Below, one piece after another: positions 2,759 through 23,505 of a stretch of DNA of 64,000 nucleotides. This DNA comes from Escherichia phage phiWec188. Each line of letters begins with the position of its first letter. Positions within the stretch are counted from its first letter, which is position 1. Where the stretch lies: sequence record LC739537.1. One strand, given 5' to 3'. The notes under the pieces are model-generated. The model was not told where the DNA came from. It was given only the letters and a program-made list of their open reading frames with translations, and ran no database searches. Both the position numbers and the translations under genes were made by a program.

Positions 2759-3232
2759 ATGTTGAAGGTTGTTACTGGTAATCTGATCGATGCAGCTAAG
2801 AGCGGGGAAGTGAACGTTATAGCCCACTGTTGTAACTGCATGTGTAATATGGGTAAAGGGATTGCTCCACAGATTAAAAAAGCATTTCCTTATGCATATG
2901 CAGCCGACTTGGACACAGCAGCAGGTGATCAAAGTAAACTGGGTTCTTTTAGTTTAGGGGTGCCAGAGAATTCCTCTGATCCTTTGGTGTATAACCTGTA
3001 CGGACAGTATCGTTACGGGTACAACGCTAAAGGTCGTCAGTTGGACTACGATGCTCTTTATGACGCACTGATAGCTATGGCTAATGATTTGCTCCTCCAG
3101 GCAAAAGGGCTTAAAATTGGTCTGCCTATGATCGGAGCAGGTTTTGCGGGAGGTAATTGGGCTATCATCGAAGTGATGATTGAAGAAACTTTAGTAAAAA
3201 CAGGTCACGATGTGACTATTTATAAACTTTAA
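2759..3232 (+). CDS. macro domain protein (ADP-ribose binding/processing)
   Basis: VNVIAHCCNCMCNMGKGIAPQI and IGLPMIGAGFAGG match the two conserved macro-domain glycine-rich loops; AAGGAGGG RBS. Confidence 0.65.
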   Translation: MLKVVTGNLIDAAKSGEVNVIAHCCNCMCNMGKGIAPQIKKAFPYAYAADLDTAAGDQSKLGSFSLGVPENSSDPLVYNLYGQYRYGYNAKGRQLDYDALYDALIAMANDLLLQAKGLKIGLPMIGAGFAGGNWAIIEVMIEETLVKTGHDVTIYKL

Positions 3233-3245
3233 GAGGAGAAATAAT

Positions 3246-3467
3246 ATGGGTGTTGTTGCAGGTGTTCTGGCAGTAGTTATCGTGTTTGTTCTGGCTTTCC
3301 TGATCAGTATGATTCCAGCATGGCTTCTGCTGCTGGCTTATAACTACGTTGTTGAAATGATGGGTCACACAGATATCACTGTTCCTATCACCTTCTGGAC
3401 TGTGGTGTGTGTGGCATTTATCATGGCTGTACTACGTGGGATCTTTTCCTCAAGTTCTTCAAAATAA
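3246..3467 (+). CDS. small hydrophobic membrane protein
   Basis: 73 aa, two predicted transmembrane stretches; AGAGGAGAA RBS. Confidence 0.5.
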   Translation: MGVVAGVLAVVIVFVLAFLISMIPAWLLLLAYNYVVEMMGHTDITVPITFWTVVCVAFIMAVLRGIFSSSSSK

Positions 3468-3470
3468 GTG

Positions 3471-3498
3471 TTGACAAAGTTTTAGAATAGAGTAAGAT
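3471..3498 (+). promoter_or_regulatory. sigma70-like promoter candidate (TTGACA -35, TAAGAT -10, 16-nt spacer) upstream of terC
   Basis: consensus -35 hexamer; -10 is 4/6; located in the only sizeable intergenic gap in this region. Confidence 0.4.
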
Positions 3499-3548
3499 GT
3501 ATCACATGAGGCGGGGAGTGGTTCCCCGCAAAGAGAAAGGAGAAAATA

Positions 3549-4523
3549 ATGCAACTTGGTTTCCCCATTATTGATGTAGTGGTGTTGGTAGGTATTCTTG
3601 TTCTGTCCATCGGTATTGACTTTTTCGGGCATCGTGAGAACAAGGAAATCTCTTTCAAATCTGCTGTGGCTTGGTCAATCTTCTGGATTGGTGTGTCTTT
3701 AGCCTACTATGGTTTTGTATACTTCCAGCACGGCGCAGATTTTGCAAACTTGTTCTTGAGCGGGTATGTGTTAGAGAAGTCGCTCTCGGTAGATAACTTG
3801 GTAGTGTTTGTAGCAGTGTTCTCCAGTTTCGGGATTAAGAGCACACACTTACAACACAAAATTCTACTCTGGGGTATTGCAGGTGCGATTGTCTTCCGAG
3901 GTGTGTTTGTAGCAGCAGGGACTTATCTGCTAAGTATTGGATGGTATGTTAATATTTTCTTCGGTATTGTGATTCTTTTTTGTGCGGCGAAGATGTTGTT
4001 TAAACAAGACGATGACGCAGCAGTTGATTACTCTAAACATTGGGCTACCCGCGTCGTTCGTAAACTGTTCCCAGTATCGGATCAGATGGATGGTGAGAAG
4101 TTCTTCACGATTAAGAATGGTGTTCGTGTAGCAACTCCGGCTCTGGTTTGTGTGTTCGTGATGGAAATGGTAGATGTGATCTTTGCAGTAGACTCGGTTC
4201 CGGCTGTAATTGCAGTGACACAAGAACCACTGCTTGTATTCTCTTCGATGCTCTGTGCAATCTTAGGCTTACGTGCTCTGTTCTTTGTTCTTAGTGTGGC
4301 CCTGAAGTATCTGGTTCACCTGGAGAAAGCAGTTATCGCAGTCCTGGTGTTTGTTGGTGTGAAACTGATGTATCACCCGTTTGCAGAAACGCTGCACGCA
4401 AAAGTGAGCTTCCTGCCAGCGCATATTGACCCGACGATCAGCATGTATATCGTGCTTGGTACTCTGGCCCTGGGCGTGATTGCAAGTTTCATCTTCCCTG
4501 AAAAAGAAGAAGCTACCGCTTAA
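3549..4523 (+). CDS. terC: TerC-family integral membrane protein
   Basis: multi-pass hydrophobic protein with the TerC signature EKSLSVDNLVVFVAVF; RBS AAAGGAGAA. Confidence 0.8.
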   Translation: MQLGFPIIDVVVLVGILVLSIGIDFFGHRENKEISFKSAVAWSIFWIGVSLAYYGFVYFQHGADFANLFLSGYVLEKSLSVDNLVVFVAVFSSFGIKSTHLQHKILLWGIAGAIVFRGVFVAAGTYLLSIGWYVNIFFGIVILFCAAKMLFKQDDDAAVDYSKHWATRVVRKLFPVSDQMDGEKFFTIKNGVRVATPALVCVFVMEMVDVIFAVDSVPAVIAVTQEPLLVFSSMLCAILGLRALFFVLSVALKYLVHLEKAVIAVLVFVGVKLMYHPFAETLHAKVSFLPAHIDPTISMYIVLGTLALGVIASFIFPEKEEATA

Positions 4524-6634: not shown

Positions 6635-7743
6635 CAAGTCCATTTTTGAAAGCGGCAACTGGTGGTCAAAAGAAATCTGAAACGAGTGTACTGACTGCTA
6701 CTACAGACGCAAGCAAGTCCGTGTTCGCTCCGAGTGTCCTGGATGCAAGTCCGGTGTATGCTCCAGCAGCGCCAAAAGCTGTGCCTACCCTGCCAACAAT
6801 GTCTCGTAAAGAGATTGAAGAAGTAGGTGCAGAAGCAGGTTTAACTCTCCGTTCTCTGAATGCTGAAGTGCTGAAGCACCAACGTAGCAATCAAGGTGAC
6901 GAAATGAGTCAACGCCTTACAGCTTTGATTAAACAAGCCAAACAGCTTGATCCTGCCTCCATTAAGCAGAGTAAAGGTGTAGGTAAACTCATCAAGAAAC
7001 TGATGGGGATGAAAGAAGATCTCTTCGGTGAGTTCGATAACGTGAACAACCGTATCGAAGAACTCGTTAAGAATCTTCAAATGGATATCCGTAAAGAAGA
7101 AGATTCTCTGGTGTACCTGGATAAGCTGCACCAGGCGATCGGACAGTACGCCGCAAGCCTGAATCGTGATATGGAATTACTCACAGCAGCTTATGAGCAA
7201 GAACTGGCTACTTTTGAAGCCACACCAGAAGATGACGTAGAAGCCCGTCAACGCGTCCGTGACACGCTTGATCTCTTGGAGATACGTATTGCTGACTTGA
7301 AGGCATTACGCTTGCTGTGCGTGCAAATGGGACCGCGTGTATTGGGTATGCAGAAAGTATCTGCCAGCCTCATGCGTTCTGCTCGTAATATTGTGAACAA
7401 TGTGATTCCTGCTTACTCGGCAAACTTCTCAATGTATATTGAAAGTCTGCGCCAGAAGAAAGCAGCAGAAACACAGAACAACGTTCTGGACGAGTTCAAC
7501 CTGGCAATCAAACTGGGTAGCGATCTTGCCACACAGAATCAGATCGAAGCAGCAGCACTGGCTAACCGCCAAGTACTGGATATTGAAACCCTGCGTCACG
7601 ATCAGGAAAACTTGGTTAAGATGTTGGAAGAAACTAACCGCATCAATACGGAAGCCCGTGCTGCCCGTGTTGATTACATCAATGAAGTTCAATCTCTCGA
7701 AGATGGGATGGTTGACGCTGTTAAGAAGGGGCTTGGTAAATGA
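6631..7743 (+). CDS. alpha-helical protein, possible TelA-like (toxic anion resistance family)
   Basis: 370 aa, predicted helical/coiled-coil, size and context (adjacent to TerC/TerD genes) fit TelA; no diagnostic motif verified. Confidence 0.35.
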   Translation: MTSPFLKAATGGQKKSETSVLTATTDASKSVFAPSVLDASPVYAPAAPKAVPTLPTMSRKEIEEVGAEAGLTLRSLNAEVLKHQRSNQGDEMSQRLTALIKQAKQLDPASIKQSKGVGKLIKKLMGMKEDLFGEFDNVNNRIEELVKNLQMDIRKEEDSLVYLDKLHQAIGQYAASLNRDMELLTAAYEQELATFEATPEDDVEARQRVRDTLDLLEIRIADLKALRLLCVQMGPRVLGMQKVSASLMRSARNIVNNVIPAYSANFSMYIESLRQKKAAETQNNVLDEFNLAIKLGSDLATQNQIEAAALANRQVLDIETLRHDQENLVKMLEETNRINTEARAARVDYINEVQSLEDGMVDAVKKGLGK

Positions 7744-17783: not shown

Positions 17784-17812
17784 GAAGGGGCGCAAGCCCC
17801 TCTTGACTTTTG
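17784..17812 (+). terminator. terminator-like hairpin (AGGGGC-GCAA-GCCCCT + T-rich)
   Basis: after primase-helicase stop. Confidence 0.5.
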
Positions 17813-17862: not shown

Positions 17863-20460
17863 ATGAGTAAGTTTACATGGGATATTGAAGCAACCGCATT
17901 ACTGAACAATGACACAATTGATTACCTGGCAAGCCCTTATCGATTGAAAGACACTTTTGGTATGCATTGTATTTGTCTGGAAAACCACGAAACAGGAGAG
18001 ATCATTGCTTTTCACGATGGTCCTAAGTACATTTTCGATGGTCGTCCTTATGAAGAGTCTGACGGTAAGTACACTTATGTACTGAAGGAGTATGTGGCAC
18101 AGGAATACACACACTTCCCTCTGGCAGATTTTCCAGATTTTGTCAACCATACAGGTAAGTTCGCAGATAAGCCTGAATACCTCGTAGAAATGGCTGTAGC
18201 CCATAACGGCATCAACTATGACCACTTGGCAGTTAAGCTTTACTACGGGCTGAATTACAGCGTTAAATACAACACTTGGGGTGATTCGAAAGTTAAGATT
18301 ATTGATACCTTAATCCTTAGTAAAGTATTGAACCCTGATCGCAAGGTTGATGGTAAACCTGGACACAACTTGAACGCCCTTTCTAAAAAAGCTGGCGGGG
18401 ATGTTAAGATCGATTTCCGTAAAGAGATTCCAGAAGGAGAGCGATTCAAGACGTTCGCCGCAGATATGTTGTACTACTGTATCTACGACAACAAGGCAAC
18501 TACAGCAGTATATTATTACCTCATGGAAGAATGGGGTGATTATAAGAAGTGGCAAGAGCCGTTCGACTTGGAGCAACGTATTGCGGATATCATCACCCGT
18601 CAAGAACACCGTGGCTTTAAGTTCAACATGCAACAAGCTGAACAGAACCTGGAATTCTTGGACAAAGAAATGGAACGTCTACGTTTGTTGGTAGAGCCTA
18701 TTCTTCCACCTAAGCCAGCAACTAAAGGTTATCTGAAAGATTTTATTCCACCGAAACTTCAGATCAAGAAGAACGGTGAGCCAACAAACCATATCATCAG
18801 GTTTGCGGAGAAACATGGCGGTAGCCTTGAAGAACGTGAAGGTGATTGGTGGCTGCTTGTTTTAGATAAAGAGTTTAAGTTACCGATCTCAAGTGAAGAA
18901 CCTATTTGTGAACCTACCATTCCGTCTACACTGAATGATACGACACACATTAAAAACTGGCTTGTAGGTTTGGGTTGGGTTCCGTCTGAATATAAAGACA
19001 AAGACTTGACGCTTAAATCTGGTTCGAAGATCAAGAAAGATCCTGACGACTTAGAGAAAGGTATTCTGTCTTATGTCAAACAAACTCTGGAAAGCAACTT
19101 CTGTAATGATCGTTGCGAACACTTACAAGCTGATGCTGAAACATTGGAGCTTAGAATCCGTGAACGTCTGGCTAAAGGGAAAGGTCGTGGTCTTAAAGTG
19201 CTGACCAACCCATGCTTCACGAAGGGACAGGAGAAAGAGATTTGTCCTAATCTTGAAGCACTGGGCGAGAAGTTCCCGTATGCCACGCAGATTGTGCAGT
19301 ACCTGACGTACAAACATCGTCGAAACTCTATTTTGGGCGGTGGTGCAGATTGGGAAGACGATGAGGAAGATCAAGAATACGATAAAGGCTTCTTAGCAGC
19401 AGTTCGTGCCGATGGTCGTATATCGACTCCAGCGGCTACGTGTGACGCTGCAACGTCTCGTATGAAGCATCGCTCTGTTGCGAACGTTCCTCGCGTTACA
19501 TCGTTGTTTGGGTACGAAATGCGTAACTTGTTTGGGGTAGAAACACCACGTTACTTCCAGATCGGTTATGACTTTGACTCCTTGGAAGCAAAGATTGAGT
19601 CGCATTATTGTTGGCGCTACGAGCCGGAGCCTCATGAATACTGTAACGCCCTCTTGTTAGAGAAGCCTAACGATGTTCATACCATGATGGCAAGGCGTAT
19701 CACAGAAACTATTGGACGTAAGTTTGAACGTAGTCCAGCTAAATCTGTTAAGTACGGGATTACATATGGAGCACAGGCAGACAAGGTTGCTAAGACAATT
19801 GGTAGTGATAAGTACACAGGGCAACTGGTGTTTGATGCATTCTGGGAAGCAGCTTTCCCGTTAGCACAACTTAAAGAGAAGTTGAATGCTTTCTGGGTTA
19901 ACACTGGTAAGCAGTATGTTCTTGGTATTGATGGACGTAAAGTACCAACACGATCTGCACATGCAATCTTAAACTCACTGTTCCAAAGTGGCGGGGTTAT
20001 CTGTGCTAAACGTGCAATGGTGATTTATGACGATATGATCGAAGAGGAGGGTTTGGCTGTTGACTTCTTCGTTGATGACTGGAAGAATAAAGACTTCGTT
20101 CAGCAAATGATTGCTTACCACGATGAAGCGCAGCTTGAAGTATCTCGTAACCTGGTAGAATTTAAATGGTTCTCTAAAGAATCTTTGGGCTGGGTTAAAG
20201 TGGATGATGAGAAAGAGCAGAAGAAAATAGATGCAGAATGTCTTGCAAAAGCTAATGAATGGAAGCATAATAAAGAGAAAGAGACAGGGCAGATTTGGGC
20301 TAACGTTCACGAATCACCTAAAGGTGGTTGGTTTACCGCTTATAGTCGTGCCGGAGAGCTTGCTTCTCTTGCTGTTATCAAAGCTGGGGAATATTACAAG
20401 CTAAATGTTCAGCTTACTGCTGGATACGATGTTGGTAGTTCCTGGGCAAGCTGTCACTGA
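17863..20460 (+). CDS. family A DNA polymerase with 3'-5' exonuclease domain
   Basis: Exo I WDIEAT; pol motif A YDFDSLEAKI, motif B RSPAKSVKYGITYG, motif C YHDE. Confidence 0.85.
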   Translation: MSKFTWDIEATALLNNDTIDYLASPYRLKDTFGMHCICLENHETGEIIAFHDGPKYIFDGRPYEESDGKYTYVLKEYVAQEYTHFPLADFPDFVNHTGKFADKPEYLVEMAVAHNGINYDHLAVKLYYGLNYSVKYNTWGDSKVKIIDTLILSKVLNPDRKVDGKPGHNLNALSKKAGGDVKIDFRKEIPEGERFKTFAADMLYYCIYDNKATTAVYYYLMEEWGDYKKWQEPFDLEQRIADIITRQEHRGFKFNMQQAEQNLEFLDKEMERLRLLVEPILPPKPATKGYLKDFIPPKLQIKKNGEPTNHIIRFAEKHGGSLEEREGDWWLLVLDKEFKLPISSEEPICEPTIPSTLNDTTHIKNWLVGLGWVPSEYKDKDLTLKSGSKIKKDPDDLEKGILSYVKQTLESNFCNDRCEHLQADAETLELRIRERLAKGKGRGLKVLTNPCFTKGQEKEICPNLEALGEKFPYATQIVQYLTYKHRRNSILGGGADWEDDEEDQEYDKGFLAAVRADGRISTPAATCDAATSRMKHRSVANVPRVTSLFGYEMRNLFGVETPRYFQIGYDFDSLEAKIESHYCWRYEPEPHEYCNALLLEKPNDVHTMMARRITETIGRKFERSPAKSVKYGITYGAQADKVAKTIGSDKYTGQLVFDAFWEAAFPLAQLKEKLNAFWVNTGKQYVLGIDGRKVPTRSAHAILNSLFQSGGVICAKRAMVIYDDMIEEEGLAVDFFVDDWKNKDFVQQMIAYHDEAQLEVSRNLVEFKWFSKESLGWVKVDDEKEQKKIDAECLAKANEWKHNKEKETGQIWANVHESPKGGWFTAYSRAGELASLAVIKAGEYYKLNVQLTAGYDVGSSWASCH

Positions 20461-20466
20461 TGGTAT

Positions 20467-20484
20467 GGGGCTTCGGCCCCTTTA
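20467..20484 (+). terminator. terminator-like hairpin (GGGGC-TTCG-GCCCC + TTTA)
   Basis: directly after polymerase stop; inside the 5' extension of ORF 20460-20690. Confidence 0.5.
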
Positions 20485-20495
20485 TAGGAGGATAT

Positions 20496-20690
20496 ATGAG
20501 TTACGATTTAGATTACTTTGGTATGCCTTACCTACCCGATGAGTTCGCAGATGAGGCGGAGGATCGTGAGTGGGATGATGGGGATATCCGTTGTTGGTCT
20601 TGTGGTAAAGACATGTCTTATGAACAACACATGCATAACGATGGATTCTGTCCACACTGTCAGAATGAAATCGATTTAGAGGAGGACTAA
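20496..20690 (+). CDS. small zinc-ribbon protein
   Basis: start set to ATG 20496 after GGAGGA RBS; CWSCG...CPHC. Confidence 0.45.
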   Translation: MSYDLDYFGMPYLPDEFADEAEDREWDDGDIRCWSCGKDMSYEQHMHNDGFCPHCQNEIDLEED

Positions 20691-20692
20691 TA

Positions 20693-20860
20693 ATGACTTC
20701 CGGTATTATGATCTGTTATAAGATCGTTCGTATTGTTGGGGATGAAGTTACTACTCGCCACTTTATGATTGAAAATCACGCTGATGAAGTGTATAATGAT
20801 TGGCTGGAACAAGGTGGATACGACTTCGTATCTAAAGAAACTTTCCACTTGGAAGTATAA
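20693..20860 (+). CDS. hypothetical small protein (55 aa, below ORF-track cutoff)
   Basis: GAGGAGGA RBS then ATG; hand translation. Confidence 0.35.
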   Translation: MTSGIMICYKIVRIVGDEVTTRHFMIENHADEVYNDWLEQGGYDFVSKETFHLEV

Positions 20861-20869
20861 GGAGAAGAA

Positions 20870-21088
20870 ATGCGTAAATTAGTAAGTTTTAATGTTTCAA
20901 TTCTTGTTGATGAACAACATGAAGATGTTATTAAAGGTCTTGCAAATAAGCTTGCAGGTGGAATGACGGAAGCTGAAGTGTGGGAAGAATGTGCTCGACT
21001 TTATGAGGAAGGTGTTATTGAGGTCTTGGGGGATGAGATTAATATGGACGATGTTGTAAAAGTAACTGTGGAGCGTATCAATGACTAA
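20870..21088 (+). CDS. hypothetical protein
   Basis: AAGGAGAAGAA RBS. Confidence 0.45.
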   Translation: MRKLVSFNVSILVDEQHEDVIKGLANKLAGGMTEAEVWEECARLYEEGVIEVLGDEINMDDVVKVTVERIND

Positions 21089-21677
21089 ATCAAGCCAGAT
21101 TACCCTTGCCTGTGAGATCCTTACTGTTCTCAAGATTGCTGATCCTCGTTCAATCCTGGCAGGTGGCGCAGTCCGTGACTGGCGAATGTTAAATGCTGCT
21201 GGGCGAGATCTTGACTTCTACACCTCTCTTCCTGCATATAACGGGGAAGCAGAGATTAAAGAATTTATCACCACATCTTTACGTGGGACAAATATTAAGC
21301 TTTTAGGTAACAAAGATTTACCTGAAAACTATTCGTCAATGGTTGGTTTGAAACATGTGTTTGAATTTGAACGTGATGGTCAATTATGTAACCTCATGGT
21401 CATGGAAAGGGGCTACCTACCACAAGTAGCACATAACTTTGATACATCTGTTTGCCAAGCTTCTTTCGACGGAGACACCTACTGGTATAGTGATAACTTT
21501 GAAGTTACACTCGCTACTGGTATTTGTTTCTTGCACAAAGATGCAAAGGAGGATGCCAAACATGTTCGTAAACTTGCTGATCGCTTCCCAACTATGCGTT
21601 TTGTTCGTGAAGTACATGTTCGTCCCGACCCGCAAGCGGATAATTTTGAAGATTTTCAGGACGACATTCCTTGGTAA
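21081..21677 (+). CDS. minimal nucleotidyltransferase, CCA-adding/poly(A) polymerase head-domain-like
   Basis: ILAGGAVRDW followed by GRDLDFY (GGxVRD ... DxD signature of class II tRNA nucleotidyltransferases). Confidence 0.55.
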   Translation: MTKSSQITLACEILTVLKIADPRSILAGGAVRDWRMLNAAGRDLDFYTSLPAYNGEAEIKEFITTSLRGTNIKLLGNKDLPENYSSMVGLKHVFEFERDGQLCNLMVMERGYLPQVAHNFDTSVCQASFDGDTYWYSDNFEVTLATGICFLHKDAKEDAKHVRKLADRFPTMRFVREVHVRPDPQADNFEDFQDDIPW

Positions 21678-21722: not shown

Positions 21723-22118
21723 ATGACTGAACGTTCAAAAATAAGTGTTGAAACTGAATACAGCGAATACCTGAACAGTTTGATACTTGTTGAAAAAGAT
21801 GTAATAGGTCTGGATAACTCGTTCTTCTTTCAAATCCTGATAGGTAAGGGTGGACACCGAAAGTTATTCTCTCGTGTGGAAGACTCTGACCTATCCGAAA
21901 CTGAAATAACGGTTAAAGAATTTATTAGCTTGCAGGATAACATCCGAAAAGTTATTGACACAGCCGGAAACGCTGTTACAATAAAACTCGATATGCATTC
22001 TGTGCAATTTGTTCATTTTCCGAATGGAGAAATTGGAGTTGGAATAGGTAAAGGTAAGTACCTTTTAGAAAAAGAAAACGCAGAGCTTCTTCGTGAGTTC
22101 TGTGCAAAAACAATGTGA
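21723..22118 (+). CDS. hypothetical protein
   Basis: ORF. Confidence 0.45.
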   Translation: MTERSKISVETEYSEYLNSLILVEKDVIGLDNSFFFQILIGKGGHRKLFSRVEDSDLSETEITVKEFISLQDNIRKVIDTAGNAVTIKLDMHSVQFVHFPNGEIGVGIGKGKYLLEKENAELLREFCAKTM

Positions 22119-22135
22119 ATATAGAGGAGATAATA

Positions 22136-23044
22136 ATGTCCGTAATTAATACTGAAACTGATCGTAAAGGCAAAACTGTAACTTATGCAACTGGTGTTGT
22201 AGACTACGTTAAACTGGATAAATTTGCAGAGCCTAAAACCTTCCAATGGGATGGTAAGTCGATTGTTTCTACTCACCGTGCTTCACTCGTTCTGAAAGAA
22301 AAGGGTGCCAAGCAGGATGCAAAAGGGACGTGGATTAGCCTGGGTGATATTGAACTGAAAGAAGGTTACGAAAATCTTCAGGTTAAAGATGGTGATACTT
22401 GGATCACTATCGAAAAAGGTGTTGAAGTTAGTATTGATATCGACAAAGTTGATACCAAAGGTGACAAAACTTACTACAATACTAAGAAATCTCGTATCAC
22501 TGTTCTTTCTACTGAAGGCGTTCAAAAGAAAGAAAATAAATCAGGTGGCACTGGCGTTTCAGGTAACACTGGAAACAAACAATCCTTCAAAAAACGTGAT
22601 ACCGTAGGTCTTGAGACTGGTCATGCTGTAAACGGTGCACTGGAATTGATTCGTAATGGTGTGAAAGGTGAAGCGTTTGATATTGCAGGTGTGGTTCAGT
22701 CTGCGACTGTGACTCTGAAAGCTGAAGTGGCTAAAGAACGTGGCGTAGATATCAGTGATTATGATCTGGGGGCTTCTGTTGGTCACGCTGTTCTGAATGC
22801 CTGTAAAGATCATTCCGGTAAGTCTGTTTCAGTAGAAGATTTGATTGAAAATGCTCGTGAAGTTCTGGCACTTTCTGACAAGGTAGCTAATGCCATTCGT
22901 GGTGCAGCAGAACAACCTAAGAAAGAAGAAGCCAAGAAAGAGCCTAAGAAGGAAGAACCTAAGCAGGAGCCTAAGCAAGAACCTGCTCCTCAACAAAATC
23001 AAGAAGAACCTCCAATGGACTTCGACGAAGATATTCCTTTTTGA
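22136..23044 (+). CDS. ssb: single-stranded DNA-binding protein
   Basis: C-terminal tip MDFDEDIPF preceded by Pro/Glu/Lys-rich linker, the hallmark of bacterial-type SSB tails; start set to ATG 22136 after GAGGAG. Confidence 0.6.
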   Translation: MSVINTETDRKGKTVTYATGVVDYVKLDKFAEPKTFQWDGKSIVSTHRASLVLKEKGAKQDAKGTWISLGDIELKEGYENLQVKDGDTWITIEKGVEVSIDIDKVDTKGDKTYYNTKKSRITVLSTEGVQKKENKSGGTGVSGNTGNKQSFKKRDTVGLETGHAVNGALELIRNGVKGEAFDIAGVVQSATVTLKAEVAKERGVDISDYDLGASVGHAVLNACKDHSGKSVSVEDLIENAREVLALSDKVANAIRGAAEQPKKEEAKKEPKKEEPKQEPKQEPAPQQNQEEPPMDFDEDIPF

Positions 23045-23472
23045 TCAGTAAGTTATGCTCGTGTTGTGGGGCTGAAAAGCCTCTCAACATGTTCCAAGTA
23101 AGGAAGGCTTCTAAAGATGGCTATACGGCATCTTGTAAAGCTTGCTTAAAAGAACGTGACCGTATACGAGATCAAGACCCTGATCGTAAAGCAGCAAAAG
23201 AAAAATATGTAAAAGGGAAAGGAAAGGATAAAGCAGACGCTGCTAAAAAGCGTTGGCGAGAAAAGAATCCAAAGAAAAGATCTGTTCATGTTGCCGTAGG
23301 TAATGCATTACGAGATGGGGATTTGGTAAAACAACCTTGTCAAGTTTGCGGAGATACTACTGTTCATGCTCATCATTGCGATTATAACAAACCGTTTGAC
23401 ATTTTGTGGCTATGTCCTCTACATCATGAAGCTTGGCATCAAGAACATGGTGAAGGATTGAATGCTGAATAA
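23041..23472 (+). CDS. HNH endonuclease
   Basis: CQVCG...HAHHCDY...WLCPLHHEAWH zinc-coordinating HNH motif. Confidence 0.6.
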   Translation: MISKLCSCCGAEKPLNMFQVRKASKDGYTASCKACLKERDRIRDQDPDRKAAKEKYVKGKGKDKADAAKKRWREKNPKKRSVHVAVGNALRDGDLVKQPCQVCGDTTVHAHHCDYNKPFDILWLCPLHHEAWHQEHGEGLNAE

Positions 23473-23473
23473 A

Positions 23474-23505
23474 AAGAAAGGAGCCATTTGGCTCCTTTTC
23501 TTATT
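23474..23505. terminator. bidirectional terminator (AAAGGAGCC-ATTT-GGCTCCTTT, flanked by A-run and T-run)
   Basis: sits between the convergent plus-strand early block and minus-strand structural block. Confidence 0.6.

Follow-up and report, generated by a model that had tools for sequence, protein, structure and literature searches.

Why would a phage place a 198-amino-acid (198-aa) protein bearing the nucleotide-binding signature of CCA-adding enzymes among its DNA-replication genes? We addressed this question for the open reading frame (ORF) at 21081..21677 on the plus strand of a 64,000-nucleotide stretch of Escherichia phage phiWec188 (LC739537.1), the whole of which is referred to here as the window. 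Escherichia phage phiWec190 (LC739539.1) matches the window at 100% identity, the plus strand of the window corresponding to the minus strand of that record, and this phage belongs to the Stephanstirmvirinae, with 'Wecvirus' as the proposed genus (PMC12695924). A previous sequence-only reading had described the product as a minimal CCA-adding-type enzyme of a tRNA-rich phage and had suggested a part in tRNA 3'-end repair or maturation. Its descriptive part held up well: the 198-aa ORF has exactly these coordinates, the GGAVRD...DLD signature is present as A27-G-G-A-V-R-D-W34 and D43-L-D45, and the protein is indeed far shorter than cellular CCA-adding enzymes (198 aa vs 412 aa for E. coli Cca). 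The functional part fared differently. Our analysis indicates that the protein is very probably a stand-alone nucleotidyltransferase (NTase) of the Pol-beta superfamily, made up of only a class II (CCA/poly(A) polymerase-type) head and a short helical stub, and that it belongs to a Gad2-related, almost phage-only family rather than being a bona fide CCA-adding enzyme.

A conserved nucleotidyltransferase family of phages

The translated ORF begins with an ATG that lies within an 8-nt overlap with the end of the preceding ORF, and inspection of the sequence revealed a GGAG Shine-Dalgarno element (21070..21073, plus strand) 7 nt 5' of this start. The product matched PHROG 10174 ('nucleotidyltransferase') with E = 1.2e-46, and comparison with the phAPEC8 ortholog gave a ratio of nonsynonymous to synonymous substitution rates (dN/dS) of 0.14. 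An exhaustive profile search returned 3,862 family representatives (clusters) at E ≤ 1e-3, 1,357 at E ≤ 1e-10 and 240 at E ≤ 1e-30, nearly all of them 175-220 aa in length. On the basis of the PHROG match, the 1,357 representatives at E ≤ 1e-10 and the dN/dS value, we conclude that 21081..21677 is a real gene and not a chance ORF. A pattern-based scan of 185,579 bacterial and archaeal species genomes, which divergent members may escape, detected three family matches, all on contigs of metagenome-assembled genomes; the family occurs almost only in phages.

Conservation was counted in an alignment of 91 family sequences spanning 19-100% identity. A27, G28, G29, A30, R32, W34, D43 and D45 were invariant in all 91 sequences. 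These residues form motif A (21159..21215, plus strand), which comprises the nucleoside triphosphate (NTP)-binding glycine/arginine turn (A27-GGAVRDW34) and the two catalytic aspartates (D43-L-D45), and which aligns to GGxVRD...DxD of Cca and PcnB. Two positions are candidates for a third catalytic carboxylate. One is E95 in the segment V93-F-E95-F-E97 (21357..21371, plus strand), part of a strand at residues 90-98 in the structural model and acidic at this position in 65/91 members; the other is D121 in the motif B-like element F120-D121-T-S123-V-C125-Q-A (21438..21461, plus strand), and E95, E97 and D121 are all present in the 198-aa protein. The motif B-like element lacks the RRD arginines of class II enzymes and aligns with FDFTVCMG of Gad2; across the family S123 was found in 83, C125 in 84, K126 in 81 and D121 in 51 of the 91 sequences. 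A helix, A155...E157-D158-A-K-H161..K164...R168-F169-P170 (21543..21590, plus strand), was placed by hhalign, with low confidence, at the position of class II motif D (EDPxRxLRxxRF), with histidine standing in for the templating arginine. In this helix H161 was conserved in 71/91 sequences (tyrosine in 16, arginine in 3), K164 in 90/91 and F169 in 89/91, and the glutamate and aspartate were not conserved. This pattern suggests a catalytically active nucleotidyltransferase, for which CCA-adding enzymes would be no guide to the choice of nucleotide or acceptor.

The family itself is not new. From phAPEC8 onwards, orthologs have carried the annotation 'putative tRNA nucleotidyl transferase / poly(A) polymerase' or simply 'nucleotidyltransferase'; the BFVD contains at least 121 small viral proteins of similar structure, and relatives are already covered by the Gad2 family of Pfam. 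The NTase is therefore one more member of a known, functionally uncharacterised kind, and our literature search found no functional studies of phage mini-NTases. To this our analysis adds a negative test of membership among CCA enzymes, a quantified association with replication modules, an explicit profile link to verified Gad2 and the mimicry of the host single-stranded DNA-binding protein (SSB) tip.

Several family members depart from the usual architecture. ORF223 of Vibrio phage ICP1 (L002:2956-3369) is a 137-aa head alone that ends directly after the FG.SVC motif, and some ICP1 isolates have two ORFs beneath the family match. In Vibrio phage CHOED_022 (L003:2419-3699), the domain is joined by a proline-rich linker to a 190-aa N-terminal region in which no Pfam domain was found, and the gene overlaps the stop of a DNA ligase gene. 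The N-terminal extensions of 10 longer members were likewise devoid of Pfam domains, so the fusions give no functional clue.

Relationship to class II tRNA nucleotidyltransferases

The NTase has the head-domain fold of class II enzymes and their motif A (G28-G-A-V-R-D33 together with D43-L-D45). The profile check that the sequence-only reading had proposed did not bear out its assignment: the match to Pfam PolyA_pol (PF01743) reached 13.1 bits, short of the gathering threshold of 23, and covered only residues 26-61, and relatives of the NTase scored 12.9-19.2 bits. An NCBIfam search and a single-sequence phmmer search of PDB sequences with the NTase yielded no match. When the profile of 91 family sequences was compared with PDB sequences, CCA-adding enzymes and poly(A) polymerases (PAPs) were recovered through weak matches at motif A only (E ≥ 0.028). 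Against a profile of 20 Cca/PcnB sequences the family scored 91.9% (E = 7e-7) over 52 columns, corresponding to helix 1, motif A and the following helix; against a single Cca or PcnB sequence, motif A alone aligned. Permissive hhalign settings (mact 0-0.05) extended the alignment beyond motif A with low confidence, giving a hint for motif D only.

Outside motif A, the residues by which class II enzymes are recognized are replaced. The Cca/PcnB alignment is invariant at R90, R91, D92, T94 and N96 in motif B and at E130, D131, P132 and R134 in motif D. At the site of motif B (RRDxTxNA) the NTase reads H-N-F-D-T-S-V-C-Q and the family consensus is [MF]-D-V-S-I-C-K, without arginines. At the site of the motif D template for CTP/ATP selection (EDxxR), which could be placed with low confidence, the NTase reads E157-D158-A-K-H161 and the family Y.W.D.H..K...[RYK]F. 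The NTase has no neck, body or tail domain to contact the acceptor arm and elbow of a tRNA; its predicted fold stops at about residue 175, where a disordered tail begins. PF12627 gave no match in the NTase; every Cca/PAP homolog that was retrieved carries PF12627 and is 300-440 aa long. The proposed identity as a class II tRNA nucleotidyltransferase thus stands as far as the head fold and motif A are concerned and falls on the PolyA_pol score, motif B, motif D and the tRNA-binding domains. These results suggest that the label 'tRNA nucleotidyltransferase / poly(A) polymerase', which is carried by hundreds of phage genomes, over-reads a single motif.

Relationship to Gad2

Gad2 is a 400-aa protein of the Bacillus phage SPbetaL7 (ORF_159) with a predicted NTase domain. 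Knockout of Gad2 renders SPbetaL7 fully sensitive to Gabija, a homolog from Brevibacillus also blocks Gabija, with inhibition shown only for that homolog and SPbetaL7 Gad2, and the SPbetaL7 protein is toxic on expression (bioRxiv 10.1101/2023.05.01.538930). Precomputed matches to PF26128 ('Gad2') were present on many members of the NTase family, including a relative 63% identical to the NTase. Verified Gad2 sequences, taken from the supplementary tables of the bioRxiv study, were aligned for profile comparison, and hhalign matched the family profile to them at 95.1% (E = 3.3e-8) over 124 columns, pairing residues 10-154 of the NTase with residues 15-141 of Gad2 and taking in a common F-D-x-[ST]-V-C...F-D element. 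This match is both longer and stronger than that to the Cca/PcnB profile (124 vs 52 columns). By these profile comparisons, the N-terminal NTase domain of Gad2 (PF26128) is the closest characterised relative of the family. Because the family matches the Gad2 profile but has kept the class II-like AGGAVRDW turn, its sequences place it between class II heads and Gad2. Our literature search retrieved neither the PF26128 accession nor information on the Gabija sensitivity of Stephanstirmvirinae.

A metagenomic phage contig (L014) carries both a long and a short form: a 371-aa NTase (3067-4182) with a strong PF26128 match and a 218-aa NTase (7001-7657) with a weak one lie about 3 kb apart and flank an ATP-dependent DNA ligase gene. 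Their presence on one contig suggests that the two forms are not redundant.

Association with replication genes

To describe the surroundings of the family, ORFs were called on 77 IMG/VR loci, which were dereplicated into 51 groups, and neighbouring genes were clustered and named by Pfam. A DnaB-type, gp4-like helicase was encoded within 7 kb in 35/51 groups (median gap -63 bp) and a family A DNA polymerase in 23/51 (median +336 bp), the commonest order being helicase, NTase, polymerase. Further neighbours were an HNH-like homing gene (20/51), a 5'-3' flap exonuclease (14/51) and an SSB-like protein (9/51), while ThyX, dCMP deaminase and ATP-dependent DNA ligase were each found in fewer than 9/51 groups. 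When the count was restricted to contigs of 40 kb or longer, 23 of 34 groups had a helicase or polymerase gene no more than 7 kb away, whereas uniform placement would predict 5.9 (P about 1e-10). Distant homologs likewise adjoin DNA ligase (ICP1, CHOED and contig L014), primase-helicase (a Curvibacter phage) or nucleotide-metabolism genes. Since phage genes cluster by function, this enrichment shows that the family belongs to the replication module and does not imply a direct mechanistic role.

The arrangement in the window agrees with this pattern. A terminator-like hairpin (17786..17801, plus strand) upstream of the polymerase gene marks the start of a transcription unit on the plus strand, the first gene of which encodes a family A DNA polymerase (17863..20460; Pfam DNA_pol_A, 4e-14; PHROG 17). 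The interval between the polymerase and NTase genes (20460..21088) holds three small conserved ORFs of 76, 55 and 72 aa, which correspond to PHROGs 25582, 22931 and 25475, all of unknown function; the 76-aa ORF (20460-20690), directly 3' of the polymerase gene, encodes two CxxC pairs with weak zinc-ribbon matches. Next 3' of the NTase gene is a conserved ORF of 131 aa (21723..22118; PHROG 16560, 4e-55), which occupies the same position in phAPEC8, phi92 and KP13-26. It is followed by the gene of a putative phage SSB (22136..23044; 302 aa from the annotated start), which ends EPPMDFDEDIPF, is annotated as SSB in relatives and matches SSB PHROGs 18154 and 7364 with its tail. An HNH/endonuclease VII-like ORF (23041-23472; PHROG 2340) overlaps the SSB stop codon. 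A bidirectional terminator-like hairpin with a perfect 10-bp stem (23476..23499, serving both strands) closes this PolA-NTase-SSB-endonuclease unit and separates converging transcription units. Between the two strong hairpins, the other terminator candidate on the plus strand was one weak 5-pair site within the polymerase gene (18120-18137). A promoter scan gave 12 candidates against 12.8 expected, which is not above chance. The gene order around the NTase gene is identical in phAPEC8, phi92 and KP13-26.

Two unusual neighbours were noted in the family survey. In 8/51 loci (cluster C5; for example, L083:12444-14531), the 'DNA polymerase' slot 3' of the NTase gene is occupied by a conserved 695-aa protein with a D..S.YP-type motif and no Pfam match at E ≤ 1e-3, which may represent a divergent DNA polymerase family. 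In four locus groups, the gene directly 5' of the NTase gene encodes a protein of about 400 aa containing four CapR-homology repeats (cluster C15; for example, L049:6273-7475). Separately, nucleotide matches to this region (OR584014.1, MG065650.1, OP562383.1) brought up phages whose recorded hosts are Pseudomonas coronafaciens (PsgM04F, 86% nucleotide identity), Campylobacter jejuni (B15 and C3) and Acinetobacter (ABPW7) but which are closely related here to E. coli phages of the Phapecoctavirus type; their host labels may be misattributed or may stem from contaminating coliphages.

An SSB-like C-terminal tail

The head is followed by a disordered, acidic C-terminal tail (residues 176-198; 21606..21674, plus strand), for which the predicted local distance difference test (pLDDT) score of the model falls below 70 from about residue 181 (62, then 47, over residues 181-198). 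The tail ends EDFQDDIPW. E. coli K-12 SSB ends EPPMDFDDDIPF, so that its tip, DFDDDIPF, compares with DFQDDIPW in the NTase, which thus carries a disordered acidic tail with D-D-[IL]-P-[FW] at its extreme C-terminus. Within the phAPEC8-like clade D194, P197 and W198 are invariant while the linker varies. Among the 456 stop-to-stop ORF segments of at least 50 aa in the six frames of the window, two have such a tip, namely, the NTase and the putative SSB, the tail of which is identical to that of E. coli SSB at 13/19 positions, its sole similarity to the host protein. The SSB tip of E. coli is a docking site for many genome-maintenance proteins, and the NTase may therefore be recruited to such docking sites or compete at them. 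We found no published account of host-SSB-tip mimicry by the NTase, although no literature search was aimed at it.

The putative SSB is itself atypical. Its matches to SSB families come only from the last 20-50 residues, its body corresponds to PHROG 4477, of unknown function, and Pfam detected no oligonucleotide-binding (OB) fold in the body; the product of 22136-23044 could be either a non-canonical SSB or a different protein that has taken over the tip of the host SSB. The SSB-like tail was rejected as a family-wide trait, being absent from 70/70 IMG/VR members. A 204-aa jumbo-phage member (L018:7001-7615, on the 351-kb contig ERZ2485795 NODE_2) ends in ...NANDLIPF, which looks like an independent gain of an SSB-tip-like end outside the phAPEC8 clade.

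A tentative model and its weak points

Drawing on the fold, the motif conservation, the Gad2 homology, the operon and family context and the tail mimicry, we tentatively suggest that the NTase could be tethered to the replisome or to the SSB hub and have a Gad2-like protective role against end-sensing nucleases. In this model, the NTase would be co-transcribed with the phage DNA polymerase and SSB. NTP binding would involve the invariant GGA(V/P)R(D/N)W turn together with K164 and H161, and nucleotidyl transfer would be catalysed by D43, D45 and either E95 or D121. The DFQDDIPW tail would dock on SSB-tip pockets of the phage polymerase or helicase, or of host SSB-interacting proteins, which would bring the enzyme to single-stranded DNA, forks and DNA ends. 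There it might extend 3' ends with nucleotides or nucleotidylate a protein, with the outcome that replicating phage DNA would escape end-sensing host nucleases, for example, Gabija. Catalysis, substrate, tethering and anti-defence outcome are the points at which this model goes beyond the comparisons above.

A number of observations weigh against the model. The homology to Gad2 is remote and confined to the N-terminal ~140 residues, pairwise BLASTP between the NTase and Gad2 was not significant (E = 0.04), and no precomputed PF26128 match exists on the NTase itself. The C-terminal ~250 aa of Gad2, which may be the part acting on Gabija, have no counterpart in the NTase, and Gad2 has AGGAITSLF where the family has the class II-like AGGA(V/P)R(D/N)W. 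Temperate SPbeta-like phages and prophages carry Gad2 in an anti-defence locus; the NTase gene, by contrast, lies in the replication operon of a virulent phage, and the mechanism of Gad2 was 'yet to be elucidated' as of February 2026 (PMC12904381). With respect to the enzyme, the third carboxylate is not strictly conserved across the family (E95 in 65/91, D121 in 51/91), and the core of the NTase is acidic (isoelectric point 5.8), which is unusual for a nucleic-acid-binding enzyme. The SSB-like tail is limited to the phAPEC8-like clade and the one jumbo-phage member and cannot, therefore, explain the function of the whole family. Finally, the enrichment of replication genes could merely reflect the clustering of early genes.

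Alternative explanations

The explanation put forward originally can be assessed from the tRNA genes themselves. It takes the protein for a minimal enzyme of CCA addition or tRNA 3'-end repair, which would mend damaged acceptor ends on tRNAs of the phage or the host and thereby counter acceptor-targeting nucleases. The phage is tRNA-rich, as stated at the time: at least 11 tRNA genes (Met x2, Ile, Pro, Gln, Gly, Thr, Tyr, Ser x2, Arg) are located at 60836-63288 on the minus strand, and several of them are separated by only 2-6 nt (e.g., Arg/Met2 and Ser/Ser), a spacing that suggests a polycistronic precursor. In favour of this explanation, both the fold and motif A are those of class II tRNA nucleotidyltransferases, relatives carry the corresponding annotation, and full-length CCA-adding enzymes of jumbo phages are predicted tRNA repair factors (PMC7824862). 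The tie to the tRNA cluster found no support on closer inspection, however. The cluster lies 39 kb from the NTase gene, which sits inside the polymerase-SSB operon, and all 11 tRNA genes encode the 3'-terminal CCA, so their maturation does not require CCA to be added de novo; the host E. coli, moreover, has its own 412-aa Cca. A homolog is present in a 46.9-kb Zobellviridae Vibrio phage without tRNA genes, and a tRNA gene was found within ±10 kb at only 6/70 related viral loci. Given also that the neck, body and tail domains are missing, that PolyA_pol stays below threshold, that neither the RRD arginines nor the EDxxR template is conserved, and that the family is akin to Gad2, we consider tRNA repair very unlikely.

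Another alternative is a replication accessory without any defence role: the NTase might be a template-independent terminal transferase or a primer- or end-processing enzyme, recruited by its tail to the 3' ends of phage DNA or to RNA primers, for instance, in preparing ends for ligation or concatemer formation. Such a role appears unlikely, since the protein has an acidic core and no DNA-binding domain of the helix-hairpin-helix or 8-kDa type, there is no experimental precedent in phage replication, and many phages of the same replisome type, KP34 among them, do without the gene, which is therefore dispensable. The toxicity of Gad2 and of Gp22 of Klebsiella phage fHe-Kpn01 lends support to a role in host shutoff: as a toxin of the MenT or poly(A) polymerase type, the NTase would extend the 3' ends of host tRNA or mRNA, preventing aminoacylation or tagging the RNA for decay. 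This we regard as quite unlikely: the NTase resembles MenT less than it does class II enzymes, the PADLOC models for AbiEii, MenT and cyclases do not match it, Gp22 aligns to the family at motif A only (26 columns), no antitoxin-like partner is evident, and both the replication-operon setting and the SSB-tip tail are left unexplained. More generally, PADLOC defence models gave no match to the NTase, and two sub-significant matches on other proteins were disregarded. The variation at the third-carboxylate positions (E95 acidic in 65/91, D121 in 51/91), the retention of a 137-aa head alone in ICP1 and the prospect that the tail by itself could compete as a mimic of host SSB all speak for a catalytically inactive scaffold, in which a degenerate NTase domain serves as a structural or protein-binding module, e.g., a decoy on SSB-tip sites. 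The invariance of the NTP-binding turn and both DxD aspartates in 91 sequences and the presence of K164 in 90/91, typical of an active enzyme, together with the dN/dS of 0.14, make such a scaffold highly improbable.

Returning to the tethered, Gad2-like NTase, its most specific form, in which a mini Gad2-like enzyme docked through its SSB tip at the replisome nucleotidylates DNA ends or a host factor and thereby disarms Gabija-like end-sensing defences, is speculative and on present evidence improbable. If true, it would reveal the mechanism of the Gad2 family and would identify 'SSB-tip mimicry' as a phage route for bringing enzymes to the replication fork. If the short forms share the activity of Gad2, they would offer a 200-residue minimal system for studying how an NTase defeats a DNA-end-sensing nuclease, and many virulent phages would have counter-defence as an integral part of their replication operons. 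The SSB-tip-like tail provides a concrete and inexpensive hypothesis as to which protein recruits the NTase. As it stands, the result is a useful re-annotation and a lead rather than a discovery, the family having been known before.

Comparison with known systems

Compared with E. coli Cca and PcnB (PDB 1miv, 3h37, 3aql, 4wby and 3wfo), the NTase is at most half as long and is without the neck, body and tail domains and PF12627; it also lacks the motif B arginines of Cca/PcnB, has EDAKH in place of EDxxR and remains under the PolyA_pol gathering score. A protein of comparable size is PDB 2la3 (S. pneumoniae NP_344798.1, 191 aa, 'CCA-adding enzyme head domain'), which is bacterial, unlike the phage NTase; it was not among the family-profile matches to PDB sequences at E ≤ 10, and our literature search on it found nothing relevant. 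MenT and AbiEii toxins resemble the NTase in being small Pol-beta-fold NTases (about 180-300 aa) without tRNA-measuring domains, and MenT enzymes extend tRNA acceptor ends (PMC11541572); the NTase, however, showed neither a match to the toxin models nor an adjacent antitoxin gene.

Closer in form are Gp22 of fHe-Kpn01 (182 aa), the gene of which lies directly 3' of the DNA polymerase (PolA) gene, and other small 'PolyA_pol head' proteins of Autographiviridae (for example, those of LKD16, PP2 and Ninurta). These are stand-alone heads of ~170-190 aa, the residue numbers of their motif A coincide with those in the NTase, and the small Autographiviridae heads are BFVD structural neighbours of the NTase without the SSB-like tail. 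Gp22 is toxic in E. coli (PMC7291057), and no equivalent was found in phage KP34. We rejected Gp22 as a family member because its profile likeness is limited to motif A (71.7%, 26 columns), and it therefore represents a parallel family rather than a demonstrated member. Gad2, at about 400 aa against 198 aa for the NTase, has a full-length architecture that the NTase does not share; within the N-terminal domain, however, Gad2 and the family present the same elements in the same order, namely, a helix, the AGGA turn, D-x-D-x-Y/F, a Q-x-M/I strand and F-D-x-[ST]-V-C...F-D.

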